From Oscillatoria sp. Prado101 (GTDB lineage: Bacteria; Cyanobacteriota; Cyanobacteriia; Cyanobacteriales; Oscillatoriaceae), in the NCBI GenBank assembly GCA_025454445.1, contig JALOOK010000018.1, positions 1 to 16,558 of the forward strand: a DNA stretch of 16,558 bases, in the 5' to 3' direction. The translations under genes were made by a program, and so were the position numbers. The notes below the pieces were generated by a model. The model was given only the letters and a program-made list of their open reading frames with translations, had not been told where the DNA came from and searched no databases. This document shows, piece by piece, positions 1-15,009 of this stretch (the first letter of the stretch is position 1; each line of letters starts with the position of its first letter).

Positions 1-119
1 TTCTTATCTTCAGGAGCTACAGCCTAGAAGAAATGAGGGAAAAAATCTTTACCGACAAATACCTCCTGACTTCCAGTGAGCTGAACGTCCTCAACCTGAT
101 TCTCTCCAAAGAAAAGTAG
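1..119 (+). CDS. Possible 3' end of a plus-strand gene entering from the left. The open frame from the window edge reads ...LIFRSYSLEEMREKIFTDKYLLTSSELNVLNLILSKEK* with stop TAG at 117-119.
   Basis: No in-frame stop between window start and 119 in frame 3. The frame ends exactly where the hairpin-repeat array begins, which fits a convergent arrangement with the 261-2414 gene. I do not recognise the protein. Confidence 0.25.
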   Translation, partial: LIFRSYSLEEMREKIFTDKYLLTSSELNVLNLILSKEK

Positions 120-246
120 AAAAGTAGGGTGGGGAACGCGAAGCGTAACCCACCCCCTAAAGAAAAGTAGGGTGGGGAACGCGACAGCGTAACCCACCCC
201 CCTAAAGAAAAGTAGGGTGGGGAACGCGACAGCGTAACCCACCCCA
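111..246. repeat. Tandem array of three copies of a ~43-45-bp unit, GAAAAGTAGGGTGGGGAACGCGACAGCGTAACCCACCCCCCTAAA. Each unit can fold as a hairpin with a GGGTGGG/CCCACCC stem and an inner ACGC/GCGT stem around a GACA loop.
   Basis: Read directly. Unit starts (GTAGGGTGGGG) are at 124, 167 and 212. The first copy has GAAGCG instead of GACAGCG. There are no unique spacers between units. The array lies between the stop of the minus-strand gene at 261 and the putative plus-strand stop at 119. Confidence 0.85.
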
Positions 247-260
247 CTCAGCTACTCAGC

Positions 261-2414
261 TTAAATTTGACCGCAGCGCTGATTGGCGGATACAGCTTCC
301 TGCATCTTTTTGGGATAGGGCAGATTGAGATTATTCATTAGCTCGATGAACTGGCTGCGATTGCGCCCCGCCAACCGGGAATTCCAGCACTTTTCTTCCC
401 CAATAGTAGACACTGTTCGCCCCTGATAATCGTGACAGGGATACACCAAAGTGTCATCCGGTAACGTGAATAACTTCTGCGTTACCGCATCATACAGCAC
501 ACCGGCATTGCCATTCTGAAAGTCAGTACGACCGCAACCCCGGATCAGCAGCGCATCGCCGGTTAACAGGTAAATGCCGTCGATAAGATAAGCATTATGG
601 CTGTCAGTATGACCCGGAGTGGCAATAGCGCGGATCTGTACGCTTCCCAGTTGCAAAATCTTCCCATCCGCCAGATAGTCATCCGCACAAGTCACCTCAG
701 TATTTTCCGGCAAAATAGCCAGACAGCCCGTAAGTGTCCTCAGCTTGTCTGTGCCGGTGATGTGGTCGGCATGGATGTGGGTTTCCAGGCAATAGTGCAG
801 AGTTAGATCCAACTCTCGCAATAGCTGGAGATCGCGTTCCACTTGTTCCAACACAGAATCGACTAGGATGGCTGCTTTGGTTGAGCAATCGGCAATCAGG
901 TAAGTGTAGGTACTCGATTCTTTATCGAAAAGTTGACGCAATAGCATAGTAGATTTATGCAACGCAAACGATAGATTTCCAGTACAGCAATCCCCCGCAA
1001 CAGGTGTATCGGGTTTGGGACTGAGGGATTTCAGCAGCTCCTGCGCAAGAGTTGCAGCCTGAACCCGAATTTCGGGAACGGCTGTAGTTTCCCAAAGATT
1101 GCCCTTGCGGGGTGTCCCCAAAGTATACAGCAGTTCCGATACCTTTCCGTCTGCATCGATTAGAGCACCGTTTGGGGCTGTGTCAATTCCGATTGACAGC
1201 TCGTTGAAGCGGATCAGCTTTTGTTCTTGCAAGCTGGCGAGCAACGGGTGCTGCAATTTGCGATAGTTAGAGTTTGAGCCGGTGCAGTTCAGAATCCGGC
1301 TGACCAACAGCACTTTCTCTGTCTGCGTCCCCCGTTCCAGAATCGTCACAGCCACCCGATTTTCCAACTCGCGACAGCTTTGAATCCGACCGGCATAAGG
1401 GTTCAGTTGACCGGACTGCACTGTCGCATCCAGCAGCAGCGCTATTTCTTCAGCAATGCGATGCCGGCATACTTCCCAGTAAGCCTTGACGTGGCGCAAA
1501 AATCGCTTTTGTTCCTGCAGTGGAAGCGCTTGCCAAACTTGTTGAGTCACTGGGCGGAGCGCGTCGATTACCGCACGCCAGTCGTGCCCTTGCGCCACCG
1601 CCGCTCGCACTTCTCGGCGCACCAGATGAAGGATTTCTCGCGAAGTTTTTGGTGCGGAATATGCGTTAATAAATGCCGGATAAGGACTTGTTTTCTTGTG
1701 ACCGGCAGGCATCAAACCGTGACGCGAGACGGCATATATTTTTCCCTGAAATCCTTTTTGGTGCAAGGCAGCGACCGCATCGGCCATCGTCAAGCCGGTG
1801 CCCACCACCAAAATAGAATCGTCTGGATTCAGACCGGCAACCGCATCAGCTTCCCAGCCATCTCTCACATAGCGAGCGCAGTTCTCCAGACCGGCAAGCG
1901 GTTCAGGCAGGGATGCTGGGAAATTTCCCAGCGCTAGCACAGCCTTTTGAACGCACAAACACTCACCGCTGCTAAGATAAACCCTGATGTCGGTTCCTGT
2001 CGTTTCCAGGGCAACCGCTTCACCCACAATCCGCTGCAACCGCACACCAGCTTGAGCGTTTGTTTCCGCTTCCTTCAGCAGTGCCCGCACGTAATCCCCA
2101 TAAACCTGGCGCGGGACGAAAGAGGATGCTGTACTTTCAGCATACCCGTTGCTTTGCAACCAGTTCAGGAAGTGAGCCGGTTCGTCCGCAAACGCACTCA
2201 TCTTCCCCGCCGGCACGTTAAGCAAATGGCAGGATATTTCCGTCCCGTAAGCCACTCCTCTGCCTACTTCCGGACTCCGCTCAATCAACTTAATCCCCAC
2301 CGGCACGGTTGCATTCCGCAAAAGATTTGCTGCAACCAGACAACCGCTAAAGCCGCCTCCAATGATAGCAATATCACCCGGAGGAATCGTCATGTTTTTG
2401 CCGCCGTCGTTCAT
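261..2414 (-). CDS. Fusion protein. N-terminal ~480 aa is a FAD/NAD(P)-binding (Rossmann GGGFSG) oxidoreductase-like domain. C-terminal ~230 aa is an ETHE1/Blh-type persulfide (sulfur) dioxygenase of the metallo-beta-lactamase fold.
   Basis: The N-terminus reads IAIIGGGFSGCLVAANLL, a dinucleotide-binding motif. The C-terminal half carries the HxHxDH metal motif (THIHADHITG) and aligns well with ETHE1-type persulfide dioxygenases (I am comparing against human ETHE1 from memory, not a search): GDALLIRGCGRTDFQNGNAGVLYDAV...LPDDTLVYPCHDYQGRTVSTIGEEK...FIELMNNLNLPYPKKMQEAVSANQRCG. The true start may be the internal Met at residue 8 (MTIPPGD...). Confidence 0.85.
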   Translation of the reverse strand: MNDGGKNMTIPPGDIAIIGGGFSGCLVAANLLRNATVPVGIKLIERSPEVGRGVAYGTEISCHLLNVPAGKMSAFADEPAHFLNWLQSNGYAESTASSFVPRQVYGDYVRALLKEAETNAQAGVRLQRIVGEAVALETTGTDIRVYLSSGECLCVQKAVLALGNFPASLPEPLAGLENCARYVRDGWEADAVAGLNPDDSILVVGTGLTMADAVAALHQKGFQGKIYAVSRHGLMPAGHKKTSPYPAFINAYSAPKTSREILHLVRREVRAAVAQGHDWRAVIDALRPVTQQVWQALPLQEQKRFLRHVKAYWEVCRHRIAEEIALLLDATVQSGQLNPYAGRIQSCRELENRVAVTILERGTQTEKVLLVSRILNCTGSNSNYRKLQHPLLASLQEQKLIRFNELSIGIDTAPNGALIDADGKVSELLYTLGTPRKGNLWETTAVPEIRVQAATLAQELLKSLSPKPDTPVAGDCCTGNLSFALHKSTMLLRQLFDKESSTYTYLIADCSTKAAILVDSVLEQVERDLQLLRELDLTLHYCLETHIHADHITGTDKLRTLTGCLAILPENTEVTCADDYLADGKILQLGSVQIRAIATPGHTDSHNAYLIDGIYLLTGDALLIRGCGRTDFQNGNAGVLYDAVTQKLFTLPDDTLVYPCHDYQGRTVSTIGEEKCWNSRLAGRNRSQFIELMNNLNLPYPKKMQEAVSANQRCGQI

Positions 2415-2654: not shown

Positions 2655-2700
2655 CTAGTTCCTAGGCTCCCTTACGGGAAGCCTGCTGCTACAGCCTAGG
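2655..2700. promoter_or_regulatory. Inverted repeat GTTCCTAGGCT ... AGCCTAGGAAC (11-bp stem, ~25-nt loop that contains a small CCC-TTAC-GGG hairpin). It lies in the 280-bp gap upstream of the dioxygenase-fusion gene and overlaps the 3' end of the upstream YeeE gene.
   Basis: Read directly from the sequence. Its function is unknown. It could be a transcript 3' hairpin or an operator. Confidence 0.3.
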
Positions 2701-3187
2701 AACGAGAATCTGGAGGCGCAGCCTCGAATTGAAAATTGTGCGAGGTGTCTGTTTTATCCAATCCCCCCCCCTCAAACCGAGTCGAGAACCATTTGTAAGT
2801 CAGCGAACCGGCAATCATCGCGATTACAAACAACACGGGATTCCAGATGCCCAGCACCAGCGCCGTGAGGGCCGGTCCGGGGCAGTAGCCAGCAATTCCC
2901 CAACCGGCACCGAAAATAACCGCACCCAAAATCAATTTTCTGTCGATGGTTTTCCGAGCCGGCAATTCAAACTTTTCCGCATAAAATGGGTGCGGGAGAC
3001 GCAACACGAAACGGAACGCAATCACCGTCACCCCAACCGCCCCGCCCAGCACAAACAGCAGCGTCGGGTCCCAAGCGCCGGTGACATCCAAGAAACCGAG
3101 AACCCGCTCGCGGTCAATCATCTGGGAAAAACCCAAACCCAGACCAAACAGCACACCAGAAATCAAAGCTACCAGATTTTGTTTCAT
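2696..3187 (-). CDS. YeeE/YedE-family (Sulf_transp / DUF395-type) membrane protein, half-size. Predicted thiosulfate/sulfur-compound transporter subunit.
   Basis: 163 aa, multi-pass hydrophobic, with a GxxxG-rich segment GAVIFGAGWGIAGYCPGPAL typical of YeeE/YedE half-transporters. It is paired with a second half-size paralog immediately upstream. Confidence 0.75.
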   Translation of the reverse strand: MKQNLVALISGVLFGLGLGFSQMIDRERVLGFLDVTGAWDPTLLFVLGGAVGVTVIAFRFVLRLPHPFYAEKFELPARKTIDRKLILGAVIFGAGWGIAGYCPGPALTALVLGIWNPVLFVIAMIAGSLTYKWFSTRFEGGGLDKTDTSHNFQFEAAPPDSRS

Positions 3188-3299: not shown

Positions 3300-3728
3300 T
3301 CATGTTGACAAAAAAAGCACATGGCGAGTCACGAAAACCGTGACGATCGCAGTGCCCAAAAAAGTGAGAACAGCCACCAGCGAGCGAAGCGAAAGTCTGC
3401 CCAGCCCACACACCCCATGTCCGCTGGTGCAGCCGTTGCCCATGCGCGTCCCGAAACCAACCAGAAAGCCGCCGGCAATCATCGCCCAAGGAGCGAACTT
3501 AGATGCCGGTGTCGGAGAGGGCGCGAGGACATATTCATAGAGTGCGCCCCCCGCCAGCAGTCCGCCCAGAAAAAGCCAGCGCCAGACAACGCCTGACGCT
3601 AAATTGAGGGCGCTGTTGAGCGTGCCACTAATCCCAGCAATCCGACCGTTGAATGCCAGCAGGACAGTCGCACTCGTGCCGATCAGCAAACCGCCCAGCA
3701 AGCCGGTCTCCCAGTTAAACTCTATCAT
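3300..3728 (-). CDS. YeeE/YedE-family membrane protein (half-size) carrying the conserved cysteine motif GNGCTSGHGVCG.
   Basis: 142 aa, hydrophobic. The GCTSGHGVCG motif matches the conserved cysteine-containing loop of YeeE/TsuA-type thiosulfate transporters. Its start lies 18 nt after the cysE stop, so it is probably in an operon with cysE. Confidence 0.8.
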   Translation of the reverse strand: MIEFNWETGLLGGLLIGTSATVLLAFNGRIAGISGTLNSALNLASGVVWRWLFLGGLLAGGALYEYVLAPSPTPASKFAPWAMIAGGFLVGFGTRMGNGCTSGHGVCGLGRLSLRSLVAVLTFLGTAIVTVFVTRHVLFLST

Positions 3729-3746: not shown

Positions 3747-4622
3747 CTAAATTCCAGCCCCATCGAGAAAGTCTTCAATCACCCCATTAGAATAGCACTT
3801 TTCGCTCTCCGTTTTTTCGCTAACCACCTGCACCGGGGGCGCATTGAATCCAGCTTGCAACTGGACAACCTGTTTCTCAAGCTCCTTGACCCGTTCAAAT
3901 AAAGCGCGAATCACCTCAGCTTCCACATCCCGCAGGTTGTTATGCTCCAGAGCATCAGCCCTCAACCCATTCAGACGAGTGATGCGCCCCGGAACCCCCA
4001 CCACCGTACTGTTGCTCGGCACATCCCGCAGCACAACCGACCCCGCACCGATGCGAACGTTATCGCTAATCTTAATATTGCCCAGTACCTTCGCCCCCGC
4101 TCCCACAACGACATTATTCCCCAGCGTCGGATGGCGCTTGCCCTTTTCCTTTCCCGTCCCCCCCAGAGTCGCTCCCTGATAAATTAGCACATAGTCGCCG
4201 ACAATAGCAGTCTCGCCGATCACCACTCCCATCCCGTGGTCGATAAACACCCCTTTGCCAATTTTAGCACCCGGGTGAATCTCAATACCCGTGAATAACC
4301 GGCTCAAGAAAGACAGGAAACGAGGCAGAAAAGGAATGCCCATACCGTGCAGCAAGTGCGCTACACGATGGCACCACAGAGCGTGCAATCCCGGGTAGCA
4401 AAACAGCACCTCCAGCCAGTTGCGGGCAGCTGGATCGCGCTGATAAATCGTTTGCCAATCAGCGATTAAAACACCGATAGGGTTAGCTTTGACTGGGCGA
4501 AAACTCTCTCCTCGGGAGGAGGCGTCAGGATACTTGGCTGTCTGGCTGTTTTGGGCTACTTCTGTCGGGTTTTGAGCGTTTTCGATCAGCACGTTTCGAT
4601 TACCTCCAGTAAATCCGTCCAC
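3747..4622 (-). CDS. cysE: Serine O-acetyltransferase (CysE), left-handed beta-helix hexapeptide-repeat acyltransferase.
   Basis: Contains [32 protein letters not shown]...[46 protein letters not shown]...[30 protein letters not shown], which are the canonical SAT N-terminal and hexapeptide motifs. The N-terminus may be shorter than the maximal ORF. Confidence 0.85.
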
Positions 4623-4905
4623 TTACCTTACTTACTAATGCTCCCTTGGAGCTTGCCCTGCCTTGAGGAAAAGCGGGACAATATCGTGTCCGTTCGTTCC
4701 CGATTTTCTATATCTGTAGGGGCGGGTTCGCCCGAAATATGTGTGACACAGAGAAGGGTTCTAATAAACCCGCCCCTCCCATAAAACAGCGCTACGAGCG
4801 GACTCGAACAGTAGGCCGGCATAATTAAGCCTAACATGGGTCTTCCCAGAAACCTGGTTTCTTGATGTTCTCTTTATTTCTGCTAACAAAGCTCCGAGGC
4901 AGCAG

Positions 4906-4930
4906 CTCCCCCTCTCCCCTTGTGGGCTAC
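4906..4930. repeat. Degenerate or partial copy of the C-rich/G-rich stem-loop dispersed repeat (CTCCCCCTCTCCCCTTGTGGGCTAC).
   Basis: Shares CCCTCTCCCC-TTGTGGG with the full copies at 4987 and 5075. Confidence 0.5.
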
Positions 4931-4986
4931 TGCTTATACACAAATCCCTCTGATCCCAATTTTCCATGAAGTTGGAAGAACCTCTT

Positions 4987-5036
4987 TCTCCCCCCTCTCC
5001 CCCTTGTGGGAGAGGGGGGTTGGGGGGGGTGAGGGG
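4987..5036. repeat. Full copy of the dispersed stem-loop repeat: CCCCCTCTCCC - CCTTGT - GGGAGAGGGGG, followed by the GTTGGGGGGGGTGAGGGG tail.
   Basis: 11-bp perfect stem read directly. The G-run tail has G-quadruplex-forming potential. Confidence 0.8.
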
Positions 5037-5074
5037 CTTTTCCTGTGGTCACATAGCCAAGATGTGTATAAACG

Positions 5075-5129
5075 GCAGCCCCTTGTGGGAGAGGGGTTGG
5101 GGGGGTGAGGGGACATTTATCATGTCCCC
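5075..5129. repeat. Second copy of the dispersed repeat (CCCCTTGTGGGAGAGGGGTTGGGGGGGTGAGGGG), fused to an 8-bp perfect hairpin GGGGACAT-TTATC-ATGTCCCC at 5109-5129.
   Basis: Read directly. It lies 19 nt from the 3' end of the cysteine desulfurase gene. Confidence 0.75.
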
Positions 5130-5147
5130 TTGTGCGGACAATTCCAG

Positions 5148-7079
5148 CTAACGGAAGCGAATAGTCCGCAGGACTTCTACTAGGGTGTCGATTTCCTGAC
5201 AAGTGTTGTAAAAAGCCAGCGAAGGACGAACCGTACCCGTCAGATTATACCGCTGCATCGTCGGTTGAGCGCAGTGATGACCGGCACGCACCGCAATCCC
5301 TTCTCGGGCGAGGCGCTGCCCAACTTGTTCCACAGGGATGTCATCCAAAATAAACGACACCACGCTTACTTTGTGAGGTGCAGTACCAATTAGACGCAAC
5401 CCCGGAATCTGCGCGAGGCGTTTTATTGCATACTCGGTGAGTTGGTGCTCGTACCGTTCGATATTGCTCATCCCCAGGCGCGTGATATAGTCGATCGCCG
5501 CACCCAGTCCAACCGCATCAGCAATATTGGGCGTTCCCGCTTCAAATTTTGCCGGTGGTTCGCTGTAAATAGTTCTCTCGAACGTCACATGGCGAATCAT
5601 GCTTCCGCCACCCTGCCAAGGAGGCATATCCTCCAGGATTTCCCGTTTGGCGTACAGGACACCAATTCCCGTAGGCGCAAAGAGTTTGTGACCAGAAAAG
5701 GTGTAAAAATCGCAGCCGATCTCTTGAACATTAACCGGCATGTGAGAAACCGCCTGAGCCCCGTCAACCAGGACAACTGCGCCGTGCCGGTGGGCTATTT
5801 CCGTCATTTCCCGCACCGGCACAATTGTTCCGAGAGCGTTAGAAACCTGCGTGATGCCAACAAGGCGAGTGCGCGGACCCAAGAGTCGGGCGTATTCCTC
5901 TTGCATTATTTCGCCGCTATCGGTGACAGGAATAACCTTTAAAATTGCCCCCGTCTCTTGCGCCAGCATCTGCCACGGAACAATATTGGCGTGGTGTTCC
6001 AGCGTCGAGAGAACAATTTCATCTCCGGGCTGAATGTACTTGCGACCCCAGGTTTGCGCCACCAGATTAATCGCTTCTGTGGTTCCCCGCGCGAAGATAA
6101 TTTCCGACGCCGAACTCGCACCCAGAAACCGCTGCACCTTTTCCCGCGCTCCCTCATAAGCATCCGTCGCCCGCGCCGCCAGAGTGTGAGCGCCCCGGTG
6201 AATGTTGGAGTTGTCTCGCTGGTAGAACAGCGACAGAGCATCGATAACGCTTTGCGGCTTTTGAGTTGTGGCGGCGTTATCCAGCCAAATCAGCGGTTTG
6301 CCGTTGACTTTCTGGTGCAAAATCGGAAAGTCTTTGCGGATGGCGCTGACATCAAAGATTGCCCCCGACTCTAACCCCAGGTTTTCCACCGCAGGGGGAG
6401 ACAGGAAATAGAACGACGGCTGAGGTGTTTCCCGCACCGGCGAATGGCTCGCTTGCGCTCCCGCATCCGCGAAAGCCCTTTGCAAATCCGGCTCGCTGAG
6501 CGGGAAAATAGAAGTTGGCCTTGGAGGCGCGGGAATCGAATTGCCCGGAATTCCGCTGGGGGAAATCTGAGGAATCTGGGCGTACATCTGTTGTGCAACC
6601 TCTTTCAAAGCTTCCACATTCAAGGCATCGCTGGAAGCGGAAGTTGTTGGCAGCGCAACAGCCGTTTCGCGGGAATGTGATCCAGGTTCCAGCTGTGCGA
6701 ATGCCTGAAACAGGTTTGCCTCCAGATTTGCGGTCAACATCTGCGACCGCAACTGTTTGGCCATTGCGGTCAATGCGTCCTCGCTGCCGGCTGATGCCGG
6801 TGCGGAGTGCCCAACTAAGTTCCCAACTAATGCCACCCCACTCATGCCAGAACTATTGATTTCAGACGGCGGAACAGTCCCGATAGTTTCCACTGCCGGC
6901 TGGGTGCCGGCTGGGGCTGCCACACCGCTGCCATTTGGCACAGCGGTATAAAACTGATTCGCGAGCGATTCTACAGACAGCGGGTCAAAGATCGCACTGT
7001 CGCCGGTGGGAGGTAATGGCACATCTTGAGGCGGGTGATGTCCGTTTTTACCGTTATGCGCTGGCATATTGATAGTCAT
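5148..7079 (-). CDS. Class II (SufS/CsdA-like) PLP-dependent cysteine desulfurase with a ~230-aa disordered, Pro/Ser/Ala/Gly-rich N-terminal extension. Predicted encapsulin cargo.
   Basis: The catalytic domain spans roughly 5148-6373, and the low-complexity N-terminal region (no recognisable fold) spans 6374-7079. The domain matches SufS-type enzymes, including the active-site region RAGHHCAQP, the PLP-lysine region FYTFSGHKLFAPTGIGVLY, and TLEHHANIVPWQ. The gene overlaps the upstream shell gene by 26 nt. This architecture matches cysteine desulfurase cargo of Family 2 encapsulins as described in Synechococcus elongatus SrpI/CyD. Confidence 0.85.
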   Translation of the reverse strand: MTINMPAHNGKNGHHPPQDVPLPPTGDSAIFDPLSVESLANQFYTAVPNGSGVAAPAGTQPAVETIGTVPPSEINSSGMSGVALVGNLVGHSAPASAGSEDALTAMAKQLRSQMLTANLEANLFQAFAQLEPGSHSRETAVALPTTSASSDALNVEALKEVAQQMYAQIPQISPSGIPGNSIPAPPRPTSIFPLSEPDLQRAFADAGAQASHSPVRETPQPSFYFLSPPAVENLGLESGAIFDVSAIRKDFPILHQKVNGKPLIWLDNAATTQKPQSVIDALSLFYQRDNSNIHRGAHTLAARATDAYEGAREKVQRFLGASSASEIIFARGTTEAINLVAQTWGRKYIQPGDEIVLSTLEHHANIVPWQMLAQETGAILKVIPVTDSGEIMQEEYARLLGPRTRLVGITQVSNALGTIVPVREMTEIAHRHGAVVLVDGAQAVSHMPVNVQEIGCDFYTFSGHKLFAPTGIGVLYAKREILEDMPPWQGGGSMIRHVTFERTIYSEPPAKFEAGTPNIADAVGLGAAIDYITRLGMSNIERYEHQLTEYAIKRLAQIPGLRLIGTAPHKVSVVSFILDDIPVEQVGQRLAREGIAVRAGHHCAQPTMQRYNLTGTVRPSLAFYNTCQEIDTLVEVLRTIRFR

Positions 7080-13336: not shown

Positions 13337-14194
13337 TTATTGCGCTTCCCCTGAAAGCAACCGCCGGCAAAACTCCAGCGCAACCGCCACCTGACTGGTT
13401 TGCTGCGGGTACTCAACAGCCGGTCGCTTGATCAGCACCACCGGCACCCCCAACTCAGCCGCAACCGCCCGCTTGACATCCTCTCCCCCCGCAGTTCCAG
13501 ACGCCTTCGCCACCACCAGCGAAATTTGCCACTGTTTCCACAGCGCCCGTTCCAACTCAGCCGACACCGGCGGGCGCAGAGCCACCAGCCGGTCAGGCGT
13601 GAACCCCGCATCCAGAGCCGCTTGCAGCGCCGGCAGCGAAGGCAGAATCCGGGCGAACAGCGTACAGCGCTCTTGCCACGCGCGGAACAGCGGCAGAGGC
13701 CGGTAGCCCACAACCAGCAGCACCCGCTCTCCCGCCAGACACTCACCCACCAGCAGCGTCTCAAAACTGTCCACCTCTGTAAGGATTTGGGATGGGGGAT
13801 AGTGGGTGCCGGGATTGGGGGATTTGGGGATTTGGGATGGCCAGTCGGAACTCACCGGCGGGCGTTCGTAGCGCAAATAAGGGATGTCACACTCCCTCGC
13901 CGCCGCCACCGCCAGCTTAGAAATCTCCACCGCATAGGGGTGGGAGGCGTCCAAAATCGCAACAATTCCCTGCTCTTGCAAAAACTGCCGGATTTGACCG
14001 GCATCCAGCCTCCCCACCCACACCCGCAGCACAGGAGCCGGTGGGTAGAGCCCCCTAGCCGCTTCCGTCGTCACCGAAATCGTGCAGGGCAACTGCGCCG
14101 CCACCATCGCACTGGCCAGCAGGGCACTTTCGCTCGTCCCGCCAATCAGCCAGACACGCCGATTGTTGGGCATGGGGCATGGGTAATTGAGCAT
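13337..14194 (-). CDS. cobK: Precorrin-6A / cobalt-precorrin-6A reductase (CobK/CbiJ) with an unusual ~25-aa in-frame low-complexity insertion.
   Basis: Family-typical N-terminus RVWLIGGTSE, plus ...ILDASHPYA... and ...VVLIKRP... motifs. The probable true start is the Met at residue 8 (MPNNRRVWLIGG). The insertion (DWPSQIPKSPNPGTHYPPSQIL) is encoded by a GGGATTT-type repeat at ~13783-13850. Confidence 0.7.
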   Translation of the reverse strand: MLNYPCPMPNNRRVWLIGGTSESALLASAMVAAQLPCTISVTTEAARGLYPPAPVLRVWVGRLDAGQIRQFLQEQGIVAILDASHPYAVEISKLAVAAARECDIPYLRYERPPVSSDWPSQIPKSPNPGTHYPPSQILTEVDSFETLLVGECLAGERVLLVVGYRPLPLFRAWQERCTLFARILPSLPALQAALDAGFTPDRLVALRPPVSAELERALWKQWQISLVVAKASGTAGGEDVKRAVAAELGVPVVLIKRPAVEYPQQTSQVAVALEFCRRLLSGEAQ

Positions 14195-14286
14195 TGGGCG
14201 TGGGGCATTCTTCTATTCTTGGCGTCCTTGGCGTCTTGGCGGTTTTATTACCATAACCTCTCCCATTTGTCAACCACCTAAACCCC

Positions 14287-15009
14287 TCAAAATCGGACTT
14301 TATAAAGCCCGAACAGCTCCCCGGGCTGACGCTTAACCACCTTAGCACCGGCAGCCTTAATCAGCTTTTCCCAAGCGGGCAAAGGTTCGAGGAACACCTC
14401 AGCGCCCATATAGGTTTCCAGGATGGCCCAGTTTTCCGCCAGGGGGGTATCTGGGTCGAGGACATCAAAAACGAACTCGCCTGCCGGTTTGAGGGCCAGC
14501 TTCACCTCAGCCATAACAGCAGCCCAGTAATCGAGAGGGAAATAGCAGCTAAAGCCGGTGGCGATGGCCATATCGAACTGAGCCGGCTCGCAGTGGAGCT
14601 GGTGAGCCGGTGCCAGTTCCACTCCTTTAAAGAGCTTGGAGTTGAGCTGGGGTCCGCGAGCGTTGAGGGTGTCCCGGGCCACGGAGCTGATTTCGTGACC
14701 GTAAAAGAAAGCGCCCCAGTCGCGCCAGGGATAGATGAGAAAGCTGGCACCGCAGCCGATATCCAAACAGCGCTGGTTTTTTTGGGGTTGGGCGATATCC
14801 CAGAAAGGGGAAGTTGTTTTAGATTGGAGAGTGCCGGCAGCCCAGTCGCGAAAGATGGGCATAGCCTCGACTTCGGAGGGCAGGTCGAAGGGCTCGCCGC
14901 CATACTGCCGGTTAAAGCGAGAGGCGACCTGGGCCACTGTTGACTGCCAGCGGTCGGAGGTGCCGGCAGCAAAGAGGTTGCCTAAAGGAGAATCGGGCTT
15001 TTTAGACAT
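14287..15009 (-). CDS. Class I SAM-dependent methyltransferase.
   Basis: Motif I is CLDIGCGASFLIYP (GxGxG-like), with a downstream acidic-loop pattern. 240 aa. The substrate is not identifiable. Confidence 0.7.
   Translation of the reverse strand: MSKKPDSPLGNLFAAGTSDRWQSTVAQVASRFNRQYGGEPFDLPSEVEAMPIFRDWAAGTLQSKTTSPFWDIAQPQKNQRCLDIGCGASFLIYPWRDWGAFFYGHEISSVARDTLNARGPQLNSKLFKGVELAPAHQLHCEPAQFDMAIATGFSCYFPLDYWAAVMAEVKLALKPAGEFVFDVLDPDTPLAENWAILETYMGAEVFLEPLPAWEKLIKAAGAKVVKRQPGELFGLYKVRF

Follow-up and report, generated by a model that had tools for sequence, protein, structure and literature searches.

Persulfide dioxygenases (PDOs) of type I, including human ETHE1, the Myxococcus xanthus enzyme (4ysb) and that of Synechococcus PCC 7002, are single-domain proteins. 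The PDO-rhodanese fusions BpPRF of Burkholderia phytofirmans and CstB of Staphylococcus aureus combine a PDO with a second sulfur-handling domain, which handles the substrate or the product of the PDO, and BpPRF has been linked to sulfur assimilation. Flavoproteins are also involved in this chemistry: SQR and CoA-disulfide/persulfide reductases either work alongside PDO and rhodanese to oxidize sulfide or have a rhodanese fused to them. The genes for SQR, PDO and rhodanese are often found together (PMC7042703; PMC9163753).

Here, we analysed a window of 16,558 nucleotides from the cyanobacterium Oscillatoria sp. Prado101, in which the partner of the PDO is an N-terminal NADPH/FAD flavoprotein (hereafter domain X), unlike the rhodanese of PRF and CstB. 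No description of a flavoprotein–PDO arrangement was found in the literature searched, and searches for YdhS, PF13454, COG4529, NAD_binding_9 or such a fusion yielded nothing relevant to it. The architecture points to an undescribed two-step, O2-dependent sulfur-oxidizing enzyme.

Authenticity of the fusion gene

The earlier note, which gave no strand, had claimed a fusion of a FAD/NAD(P)-binding domain to a PDO. This fusion is real: a single ORF runs without interruption on the minus strand (Table 1), and Pfam assigned PF13454 (NAD_binding_9) to aa 16–164 (E 8e-39; 133.5 bits against a cut-off of 21.8) and PF00753 (Lactamase_B) to aa 501–661. A search for the same architecture elsewhere gave more than 120 full-length homologues. 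It was present in the best 120 database clusters, at lengths of 692–837 aa except for two shorter, apparently truncated entries, and in the genomes of 30 or more cyanobacterial species, indicating that the gene is widely conserved in cyanobacteria. In addition, the identical protein was called as a gene on two independent JGI metagenome contigs. The region around nt 950–1000, for which a frameshift check had been suggested, corresponds to a predicted disordered linker lacking any consensus among 36 fused proteins, across which the reading frame is continuous. Based on the continuous frame, the architecture shared among clusters and species, and the identical protein on independent contigs, the fusion is confirmed as genuine; a frameshift or misassembly joining two separate genes, in favour of which no point was found, is ruled out for practical purposes by the same observations.

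Table 1. Features of the fusion gene and its upstream neighbours (positions in the window)
Feature	Position	Strand	Evidence
Complete fusion ORF, 717 aa	261..2414	-	ORF list; stop codon 261-263, ATG start
Type I (ETHE1-like) PDO domain, aa 489-717	264..950	-	PDB matches
R629	528-530	-	Aligned with ETHE1; coordinates verified
D620, metal ligand	555-557	-	Aligned with ETHE1; coordinates verified
H602, metal ligand	609-611	-	Aligned with ETHE1; coordinates verified
Metal motif H546-I-H548-A-D550-H551	762..779	-	Alignment to human ETHE1
Disordered inter-domain linker, aa 466-488, PKPDTPVAGDCCTGNLSFALHKS	951..1019	-	pLDDT < 50 (full-length model), translation
Domain X, aa ~12-465, PF13454/COG4529 'YdhS' flavoprotein, FzmM/CreE-like class B monooxygenase fold	1020..2381	-	
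N376-C377-T-G379 motif	1278..1289	-	Conservation
Helical insertion, aa 258-333	1416..1643	-	Secondary structure of model, conservation
Second dinucleotide (NADPH) site, G203-T-G-L-T-M-A-D212 + S230-R231	1722..1808	-	Translation
H63-L-L-N66 motif	2217..2228	-	HMM alignment to 8cp2
FAD-binding GxGxxG motif, G19-G-G-F-S-G24	2343..2360	-	Translation
DUF6691, half of YeeE/YedE-type sulfur (thiosulfate) transporter	2696-3187	-	PF20398 E 1e-44
Sulf_transp, other half of YeeE/YedE-type transporter	3300-3728	-	PF04143 E 1e-7
Serine O-acetyltransferase	3747-4622	-	NCBIfam cysE 3e-74; Pfam
Cargo cysteine desulfurase	5148-7079	-	NCBIfam f2_encap_cargo1 2e-242; Pfam
Family 2B encapsulin shell with cNMP domain	7054-8499	-	NCBIfam encap_f2b 2e-178; Pfam

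The C-terminal persulfide dioxygenase domain

As had been proposed for an ETHE1 domain, the C-terminal 229 aa matched solved PDOs, namely, 4ysb (E 2e-78, 56% identity), 8zbd, 9rhq, human ETHE1 (4chl, E 1e-63, 48.7% identity) and BpPRF (5ve3). E-values against solved PDOs ranged from 1e-62 to 2e-78, compared with only 4e-18 against glyoxalase II (1qh3). NCBIfam gave only sub-threshold matches to GloB and Blh on this part, and GloB identity was rejected at 99.7 bits against a cut-off of 200.8. The regions of the metal motif, H602, D620 and R629 aligned with HCHADH, SPGHT, FTGDALL and GCGRTDF of human ETHE1, and these residues were invariant in 36/36 homologues. H546, H602 and D620 match the ETHE1 ligands of the mononuclear-iron 2-His-1-Asp facial triad (H79, H135 and D154 in ETHE1 numbering). 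The GSSH-pocket residues (ETHE1 R163, C161 and the D196/Y197 region) are likewise kept, as GCGRTDFQ (C627, R629) and HDY (H661, D662, Y663). These alignments identify a canonical mononuclear-iron PDO of the glutathione-persulfide type, predicted to convert GSSH and O2 to GSH and sulfite.

The window protein shares with type I PDOs the fold, the metal ligands and the R629, C627 and H661–D662 positions at 49–56% identity, but its PDO forms only the C-terminal third of 717 aa. Identity as a PDO-rhodanese fusion of the PRF/CstB kind was rejected, as Pfam gave no rhodanese match in the window protein. At least two of the sampled genomes, those of Calothrix anomala FACHB-343 and Iningainema tapete, encode a stand-alone PDO besides the fusion, and this separate enzyme is 66–76% identical to the PDO domain of the window protein.

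The N-terminal flavoprotein domain

The GGGFSG motif described earlier was located at aa 19–24. By its profile matches, domain X is placed in the large uncharacterized COG4529/YdhS (PF13454) family, for which 8990 clusters (50% identity, E ≤ 1e-3) were detected; NCBIfam contained no family for the domain. Homologues carry the JGI name YdhS, which is that of an Escherichia coli protein. Direct phmmer search of the protein against the PDB detected no significant relative of domain X, and with the family profile the only clear solved relative was FzmM (8cp2), an aspartate N-hydroxylase.

Conservation was scored in two sets, the 36 fused proteins and the wider family of domain X. As expected of class B flavoprotein monooxygenases (FzmM/CreE, NMO and FMO type), domain X has two domains that bind dinucleotides, marked by glycine motifs for FAD and for NADPH. 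G19, G21 and G24 were invariant in the fused proteins and conserved to 90% or more across the wider family, while G205, G207, D212, S230 and R231 of the second site were invariant in the fused proteins; the S230–R231 pair probably contacts the 2′-phosphate of NADPH. N66, invariant in both sets, aligned with Asn62 of FzmM, the residue that class B monooxygenases place above C4a of the flavin (PMC10404684), and is predicted to be the corresponding Asn. The helical insertion contains ten conserved residues (R266, R287, W294, R304, R307, H308, W313, R317, H318 and R319) and may form an anion/substrate chamber, by analogy rather than superposition with FzmM, whose helical substrate domain is rich in Arg and binds sulfate and aspartate. 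The NCTG motif, again invariant in the fused proteins and with at least 90% conservation across the wider family, includes C377, the only conserved cysteine of domain X. We presume that the motif is the 'ATG'-type inter-domain motif of two-dinucleotide-binding flavoproteins. With its two dinucleotide sites, the Asn predicted over flavin C4a and the inserted helical domain, domain X has the fold of class B NADPH/FAD monooxygenases and carries their diagnostic residues.

Domain X differs from FzmM and CreE, the class B members of PF13454, in several respects. Identity is only ~20%, the helical domain is smaller (~465 aa in total against 600 aa), the NCTG cysteine has no counterpart in FzmM, and domain X has sulfur enzymes as fusion partners or linked genes, whereas FzmM and CreE belong to natural-product N–N or nitro pathways. 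The profile match to FzmM covered only positions 9–214 and 364–442, leaving the residues of the helical domain unaligned. The residue set of aspartate N-hydroxylases (Arg13, Arg276, Asn413, Arg416, Arg577) was not found, and since the aspartate-binding Arg13 is replaced by Ser23 and identity is so low, domain X does not belong among the aspartate hydroxylases. Membership of the flavoprotein disulfide/persulfide reductases or SQR was also rejected, as the redox-active cysteine(s) beside the flavin were not found. Bdr (YpdA), at 326 aa, is a far smaller protein without the helical substrate domain and aligns over only 309 residues, and the profile search of domain X detected no significant sequence homology to it.

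Fusion partners and genomic neighbourhood

Three sulfur-related fusion partners of the X family were identified: PDO, the cysteine-dioxygenase (CDO) cupin and rhodanese. Fusions to sulfur dioxygenases and rhodanese recur in several separate branches, and neighbourhoods with sulfur-related genes recur around X. Two acidobacterial homologues (L035 and L041) resemble PRFs in that their PDO is followed by two rhodanese domains. An amino-acid-kinase–X fusion is also present. Stand-alone X adjoins genes for monooxygenases of the luciferase-like and acyl-CoA-dehydrogenase types, and the genes examined or listed there include no SsuE-like reductase.

In the window, a transporter gene pair with a weak TsuA match lies directly upstream of the fusion gene on the same strand, and the pair also comes before this gene on a second contig (L082). 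Beyond the pair, the genes at 3747..8499 constitute a desulfurase encapsulin operon. Neither tblastn of the window neighbours nor de novo clustering of the ORFs lying up to 6 kb on either side of 34 fused loci revealed a conserved partner in cyanobacteria beyond clade-level synteny, indicating that the encapsulin linkage is not general in this phylum. Lactamase_B and NAD_binding_9 are not listed in the encapsulin neighbourhood tables of Nichols et al. The fusion protein itself was rejected as a family 2 encapsulin cargo, as only ~11 residues precede the Rossmann fold in place of a long disordered targeting domain; the adjacent cysteine desulfurase carries an N-terminal extension of ~240 aa and matches the cargo model. 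No Rfam family was detected within the window, no promoter was found upstream of the fusion gene, and terminator-like matches were at background level.

Proposed function of the fusion protein

We propose, with a probability of roughly 0.4, that the gene encodes a bifunctional sulfur-oxidizing enzyme in which domain X oxygenates the S(IV) product of the PDO to S(VI). NADPH would reduce the FAD of domain X, the reduced flavin would react with O2 to give a C4a-hydroperoxyflavin, and one oxygen atom would be passed to a small sulfur anion bound in the conserved Arg/His cluster. This reading is suggested by the fusion partners, since all three sulfur-related ones would generate S(IV) oxyanions: sulfite by PDO, sulfinate by the CDO cupin, and sulfite from thiosulfate by rhodanese. 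Oxidation of sulfite to sulfate, or of sulfinate to sulfonate, would be the most economical mechanism, and as a consequence reactive sulfite would not be released, or sulfonate-cleaving enzymes would be fed. Since a thiosulfate-type transporter, a serine acetyltransferase and the sulfur-storing desulfurase encapsulin are encoded upstream of the gene, the enzyme probably handles sulfane sulfur from thiosulfate or from the encapsulin store. A wider version of this proposal appears unlikely at present: the X/COG4529/YdhS family would consist of flavin-dependent S(IV) monooxygenases acting as Mo-independent NADPH/O2 sulfite/sulfinate oxidases, and fusion to PDO would give a self-contained enzyme taking persulfide to sulfate. 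In the encapsulin-linked loci, those of the window and of Acidobacteria, X–PDO(–rhodanese) would in that version be the machinery receiving the elemental sulfur remobilized from desulfurase encapsulins.

The earlier note had interpreted the protein as a two-step sulfur enzyme, which we retain, with, as an example, reductive generation of the persulfide as the first step, which we regard as an unlikely rival. Domain X would then be an NADPH-dependent disulfide, polysulfide or persulfide reductase that makes a thiol or persulfide for the fused dioxygenase or rhodanese, for example, from GSSSG and NADPH to GSSH and GSH by direct flavin chemistry like that of Bdr/YpdA.

The monooxygenase fold and residues of domain X would also suit an oxygenase acting upstream of the PDO, as a quinone-independent functional analogue of SQR: a flavin hydroperoxide would convert HS− or a thiol to a sulfenate (HSOH/GSOH), which with GSH or H2S would give GSSH, the PDO substrate. 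The acidobacterial X–PDO protein with two rhodanese domains would then represent a whole soluble pathway from sulfide to sulfite/thiosulfate, in agreement with SQR, PDO and rhodanese being a canonical, often co-encoded trio. However, CDO takes the thiol directly, leaving the CDO–X fusions unaccounted for, the Arg/His cluster speaks for an oxyanion or a carboxylate as substrate rather than HS−, and the contexts resemble sulfur scavenging more than sulfide detoxification, making this role rather improbable.

PDO and CDO are O2-sensitive mononuclear Fe(II) enzymes, and domain X might be an NADPH:flavin/iron reductase that keeps their iron reduced, with stand-alone X, found beside monooxygenase genes without an SsuE-like reductase, feeding SsuD-/MsuC-like two-component systems. 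The rhodanese fusion is not explained by such a role, a simple reductase has no need of a large Arg/His-rich substrate domain and a catalytic Asn, and the known flavin reductases of two-component systems are small proteins with folds unrelated to domain X. We therefore consider it very unlikely.

It is likewise highly doubtful that the fusion serves co-expression alone, with unrelated substrates for the two domains and domain X, for example, N-hydroxylating an amino acid, as its closest characterized relative does: the amino-acid-kinase–X fusion and the absence of conserved neighbours in most cyanobacteria fit this idea, but the repeated fusions to sulfur dioxygenases and rhodanese, the recurring sulfur-related neighbourhoods and the divergence from FzmM, whose aspartate-binding Arg13 is not conserved, do not.

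Significance

Known PDO fusions so far have only rhodanese-type partners, and with a partner of the flavin monooxygenase type, bacterial sulfane-sulfur oxidation would gain a new chemical step. To our knowledge, the well-established sulfite-oxidizing enzymes all rely on molybdenum or on the APS pathway; an S(IV) oxygenase based on flavin, if true, would therefore be a new enzyme class. The desulfurase-encapsulin linkage, found in two phyla, bears on the question of how stored elemental sulfur is remobilized and where it goes, as raised in the encapsulin literature (PMC10836720). Such a partner would also provide a first functional handle on a very large uncharacterized flavoprotein family of ~9,000 clusters at 50% identity. 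Bloom-forming and symbiotic cyanobacteria, among them Microcystis and Nostoc, commonly carry the gene, and in these organisms the handling of sulfide and sulfane sulfur is ecologically relevant.

The fusion gene and its dioxygenase half

The fusion of a flavoprotein-like domain to a persulfide dioxygenase (PDO), described in the earlier note, was confirmed as a single uninterrupted ORF, in which domain X (residues ~12-465) precedes the PDO domain (residues 489-717), and the GGGFSG motif could be placed near the N-terminus (see table). A frameshift check had been suggested for nt ~950-1000; this region proved to be the inter-domain linker within the ORF, which in the AlphaFold model is the only extended region of low confidence separating the two well-folded domains, and no artefact was found. 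The two-domain architecture is widespread, being present in 120 of the 120 best-scoring database clusters (692-837 aa, except for two shorter, truncated-looking entries), including Nostoc, Calothrix, Scytonema, Microcystis, Leptolyngbya, Gloeothece and others, and in more than 30 species-representative cyanobacterial genomes. One Microcystis cluster comprises 584 member sequences. The best genome match is 73% (Nostoc) and the best database cluster is 92% identical. Two independent JGI metagenome contigs encode an identical protein, and one of these contigs (152 kb) contains the window as the reverse complement of one part. The clusters, the genomes and the identical protein on independent contigs rule out an origin by frameshift or misassembly. 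The linker of the window protein carries a Cys-Cys pair (VAGDCCTGN), which is not a conserved feature of the homologues and is therefore probably incidental.

In a PDB search, the C-terminal 229 residues matched the Myxococcus PDO 4ysb (E 2e-78, 56% identity), human ETHE1 4chl (E 1e-63, 48.7% identity) and the Burkholderia PDO-rhodanese fusion 5ve3 (E 4e-62), with a far weaker match to glyoxalase II (about 1e-18). The HxHxDH residues, together with H602, D620, C627, R629 and H661-D662, match the ETHE1 motifs in the alignment and are unchanged across 36/36 homologues, so the description of this half as a textbook ETHE1 domain was accurate. By sequence, it is a canonical GSSH-type PDO and an ordinary member of type I.

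Domain X is class B monooxygenase-like

Domain X belongs to PF13454/COG4529 (labelled "YdhS" in JGI) and, by fold and motifs, to the class B monooxygenase superfamily. The family is very large: a search of 1.84 billion cluster representatives yielded 8990 clusters at E <= 1e-3 and 3312 at 1e-30, mostly stand-alone proteins of 450-500 aa. Direct PDB sequence search gave no significant relative of X. A high-confidence model (pLDDT 93.7, pTM 0.91) was obtained from an alignment including stand-alone relatives (A2). After FzmM, its fold matches were the N-hydroxylating class B monooxygenases DesB (28.3), lysine monooxygenase (26.7) and SidA (25.7), and subsequently bacillithiol disulfide reductase Bdr (26.6), bacterial FMOs (25.7) and thioredoxin reductase (25.6). 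The A2 profile detects FzmM by sequence at E 8e-21 (next match, 3e-8), indicating that the two are homologous, beyond mere fold likeness.

In the profile alignment, Y56 of X aligns with FzmM Trp51, which stacks on the isoalloxazine, and N66 with Asn62, which sits above C4a of the flavin. According to the FzmM paper, class B monooxygenases conserve this Asn, which is critical for catalysis; N66 is invariant in A2 and in the alignment of 36 fused proteins (A1). A second dinucleotide motif, G205xG207...D212, is invariant in A1 together with S230-R231, a putative NADPH 2'-phosphate site. Like FzmM, X has a helical domain between its two Rossmann domains (modelled helices 258-333). In FzmM, sulfate and aspartate are bound by a cluster of arginines in this domain; the conserved R266, R287, R304, R307, H308, R317, H318 and R319 of X, accompanied by three tryptophans (A1, A2), may form an equivalent basic cluster. 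X thus has the make-up of a class B monooxygenase-like NADPH/FAD domain, including an invariant catalytic-type Asn and a basic helical domain. It falls outside the aspartate N-hydroxylases, the sole characterised subfamily: because identity to FzmM is ~20% and FzmM Arg13 is replaced by Ser23, X was ruled out as an aspartate hydroxylase orthologue.

Genes around the fusion gene

In the window, the fusion gene ends a run of genes on the same strand. A 281-bp gap separates it from two small genes into which a YeeE/YedE-type transporter appears to be split; this pair also precedes the fusion gene on a second contig (L082). Further upstream lie a serine O-acetyltransferase gene and an encapsulin operon without a rhodanese. 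The shell is of family 2B with a cNMP-binding domain, yet the cargo is a cysteine desulfurase typical of family 2A, and the shell and cargo genes overlap by 26 nt. Desulfurase systems of family 2B have been found in 9 phyla (PMC8346489).

The next gene upstream of this operon, on the same strand, encodes an 888-aa bacterial protein homologous to the eukaryotic Major Vault Protein (MVP), with Pfam matches to Vault repeats, Vault_2/3/4 and MVP_shoulder (E down to 1e-68), so that two large protein-shell systems adjoin. Homologues of MVP from bacteria, including cyanobacteria, have already been described (bioRxiv 10.1101/872010). Two tandem-repeat arrays share one consensus, AGTAGGGTGGGGAACGC.ACAGCG.AACC..CACCCC, with an internal palindrome GGGTGGGG/CCCACCCC; no Rfam match to them was found, and they may be terminators or REP-like intergenic elements. 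The genes at 12696-15009 are of unrelated housekeeping types, and a 293-aa ORF antisense to cbiJ, with no Pfam match, is probably spurious.

Coordinates of the features discussed (in the window unless another stretch is named)
Feature	Position	Strand	Source or remark
Fusion ORF, 717 codons	261..2414	-	ORF listing
PF13454 (NAD_binding_9, "FAD-NAD(P)-binding")	residues 16-164	-	Pfam, E 8e-39
GGGFSG motif	residues 19-24, nt 2343-2360	-	translation
Inter-domain linker	residues 466-488, nt 951-1019	-	
Linker Cys-Cys	aa 477-478, nt 981-986	-	
Metallo-beta-lactamase fold	residues 501-661	-	Pfam
HxHxDH motif	H546, H548, D550, H551		PDO domain, aligned with ETHE1 motif
Transporter half, YeeE/YedE-type (sulfur/thiosulfate), DUF6691, 163 aa	2696-3187	-	Pfam
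Other transporter half, 142 aa	3300-3728	-	matches only C-terminal third of Sulf_transp; weak TsuA match
Serine O-acetyltransferase	3747-4622	-	window operon
Cysteine-desulfurase cargo	5148-7079	-	f2_encap_cargo1, 2e-242
Encapsulin shell with cNMP domain	7054-8499	-	NCBIfam family 2B, 2e-178
MVP homologue	9226-11892	-	
Pentapeptide-repeat protein	12696-13199	-	
Precorrin-6x reductase CbiJ/CobK	13337-14194	-	
293-aa ORF	13400-14281	+	
Class I methyltransferase	14287-15009	-	
Tandem repeat, 45 nt, 2.9 copies, 97% match	118-245		just after fusion-gene stop codon
Tandem repeat, 42 nt, 3.9 copies	9036-9202		just after MVP-gene stop codon
X-PDO-rhodanese-rhodanese	L035 9953-12820		Ca. Sulfotelmatobacter
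X-PDO-rhodanese-rhodanese	L041 6580-9489		Terracidiphilus
Cysteine-dioxygenase-cupin-X fusion	L086 7001-8995		Pleurocapsa minor
Row ending in stand-alone X	L090 1412-8422	single strand	Pseudanabaena sp. PCC 6802

Fusions and neighbourhoods of X relatives

X recurs in fusions with sulfur dioxygenases and rhodanese. Relatives just 40-45% identical to X carry an N-terminal cysteine-dioxygenase (CDO)-type cupin (three representatives), a C-terminal rhodanese (one) or a C-terminal MBL domain (others), as well as an amino-acid kinase (one) or HEAT repeats (one), and two Acidobacteria encode four-domain X-PDO-rhodanese-rhodanese proteins of 955 and 969 aa. In a neighbour-joining tree of X domains, constructed without support values, the cyanobacterial X-PDO proteins fall into a single group, apart from the acidobacterial ones; CDO-X fusions appear at three or more points of the tree, in each case closest to stand-alone proteins. 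The X domain of the acidobacterial L035 protein is 80% identical to the stand-alone X of locus L040 but shares only 46-48% identity with the best matches among cyanobacterial fusion proteins. These scattered positions and identities indicate that X was joined to, or split from, iron-dependent thiol/persulfide dioxygenases several times, which provides strong Rosetta-stone evidence of a shared pathway.

At both acidobacterial loci, the four-domain gene immediately precedes a family 2A encapsulin shell gene, at L035 with desulfurase cargo in addition; a rhodanese holds the same position in about half of desulfurase-encapsulin operons (PMC10836720; PMC8049743 supplement). Genes downstream at L035 include a sigma-54 activator and an NMT1-type binding protein. 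The encapsulin linkage is not general: in ~30 cyanobacterial genomes, the window's neighbours are absent near the fusion gene, and any other shared neighbours are confined to close relatives.

Among the approximately eleven X-family contexts sampled, an anecdotal set, four neighbourhoods were of a sulfur-scavenging type and three contained nothing sulfur-related. The stand-alone X of L040 is accompanied by a sigma-54 activator, an SsuABC-like transporter and a luciferase-like monooxygenase. In Pleurocapsa minor, an SBP56 protein (selenium-binding protein/methanethiol-oxidase family) and a ferredoxin adjoin the CDO-X fusion, with an NMT1-type binding protein and a luciferase-like monooxygenase nearby, suggesting an organosulfur-scavenging island. 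Locus L087 contains an NMT1-type binding protein, and in Pseudanabaena X follows a luciferase-like monooxygenase, two acyl-CoA-dehydrogenase-type proteins, as in Sfn/Msu/Dsz systems, and RibBA.

Proposed function of the fusion protein

The three sulfur partners have an S(IV) oxyanion product in common, as PDO would yield sulfite, the CDO-type cupin sulfinate, and rhodanese sulfite from thiosulfate. We therefore propose, tentatively (probability about 0.4), that X oxygenates its partner's S(IV) product to S(VI), converting sulfite to sulfate or sulfinate to sulfonate. X would form a flavin C4a-hydroperoxide, which would then oxygenate the small anionic sulfur compound. This is the simplest unifying proposal, and precedents are FMO1, which converts hypotaurine to taurine, and MsuC, which converts methanesulfinate to methanesulfonate. 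In CstB, a fused rhodanese keeps toxic sulfite from being released. A weak point is that sulfite-to-sulfate oxidation seems wasteful under sulfur limitation. That X is of monooxygenase type and functionally coupled to PDO is held more confidently than this specific substrate.

The earlier note had proposed coupled two-step sulfur chemistry, with reductive generation of a persulfide as its example. The coupling is strengthened by the recurrent sulfur-enzyme fusions; the reductive example is less likely than an oxygenative one. We regard a Bdr-like reductase supplying thiol or persulfide as unlikely. C377, in an N-C-T-G motif, is the only conserved cysteine of X, and no cysteine pair of the SQR/disulfide-reductase kind is conserved (A1, A2). 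Somewhat less probable is an SQR analogue acting upstream as an S-oxygenase that forms persulfide from sulfide, which would retain the oxygenase chemistry. No SsuE-type flavin reductase is among the listed genes of the Pseudanabaena row, and X might be a reductase feeding two-component monooxygenases or keeping iron ferrous, which we consider improbable given its catalytic-type Asn. Functional independence of the two domains appears equally improbable in view of the repeated fusions.

In its logic, the whole window protein is similar to the PDO-rhodanese fusions, but PDO has a different partner. In the searchable literature, we found no description of the X-PDO architecture or of YdhS-family function. 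The fusion protein is common in nature and already in databases, as "FAD/NAD(P)-binding protein" or, wrongly, "hydroxyacylglutathione hydrolase", and is functionally uncharacterised. The finding gives a concrete, testable way to approach what this very large orphan family of flavoproteins does, and the fusion protein may be linked to the fate of encapsulin-stored sulfur.
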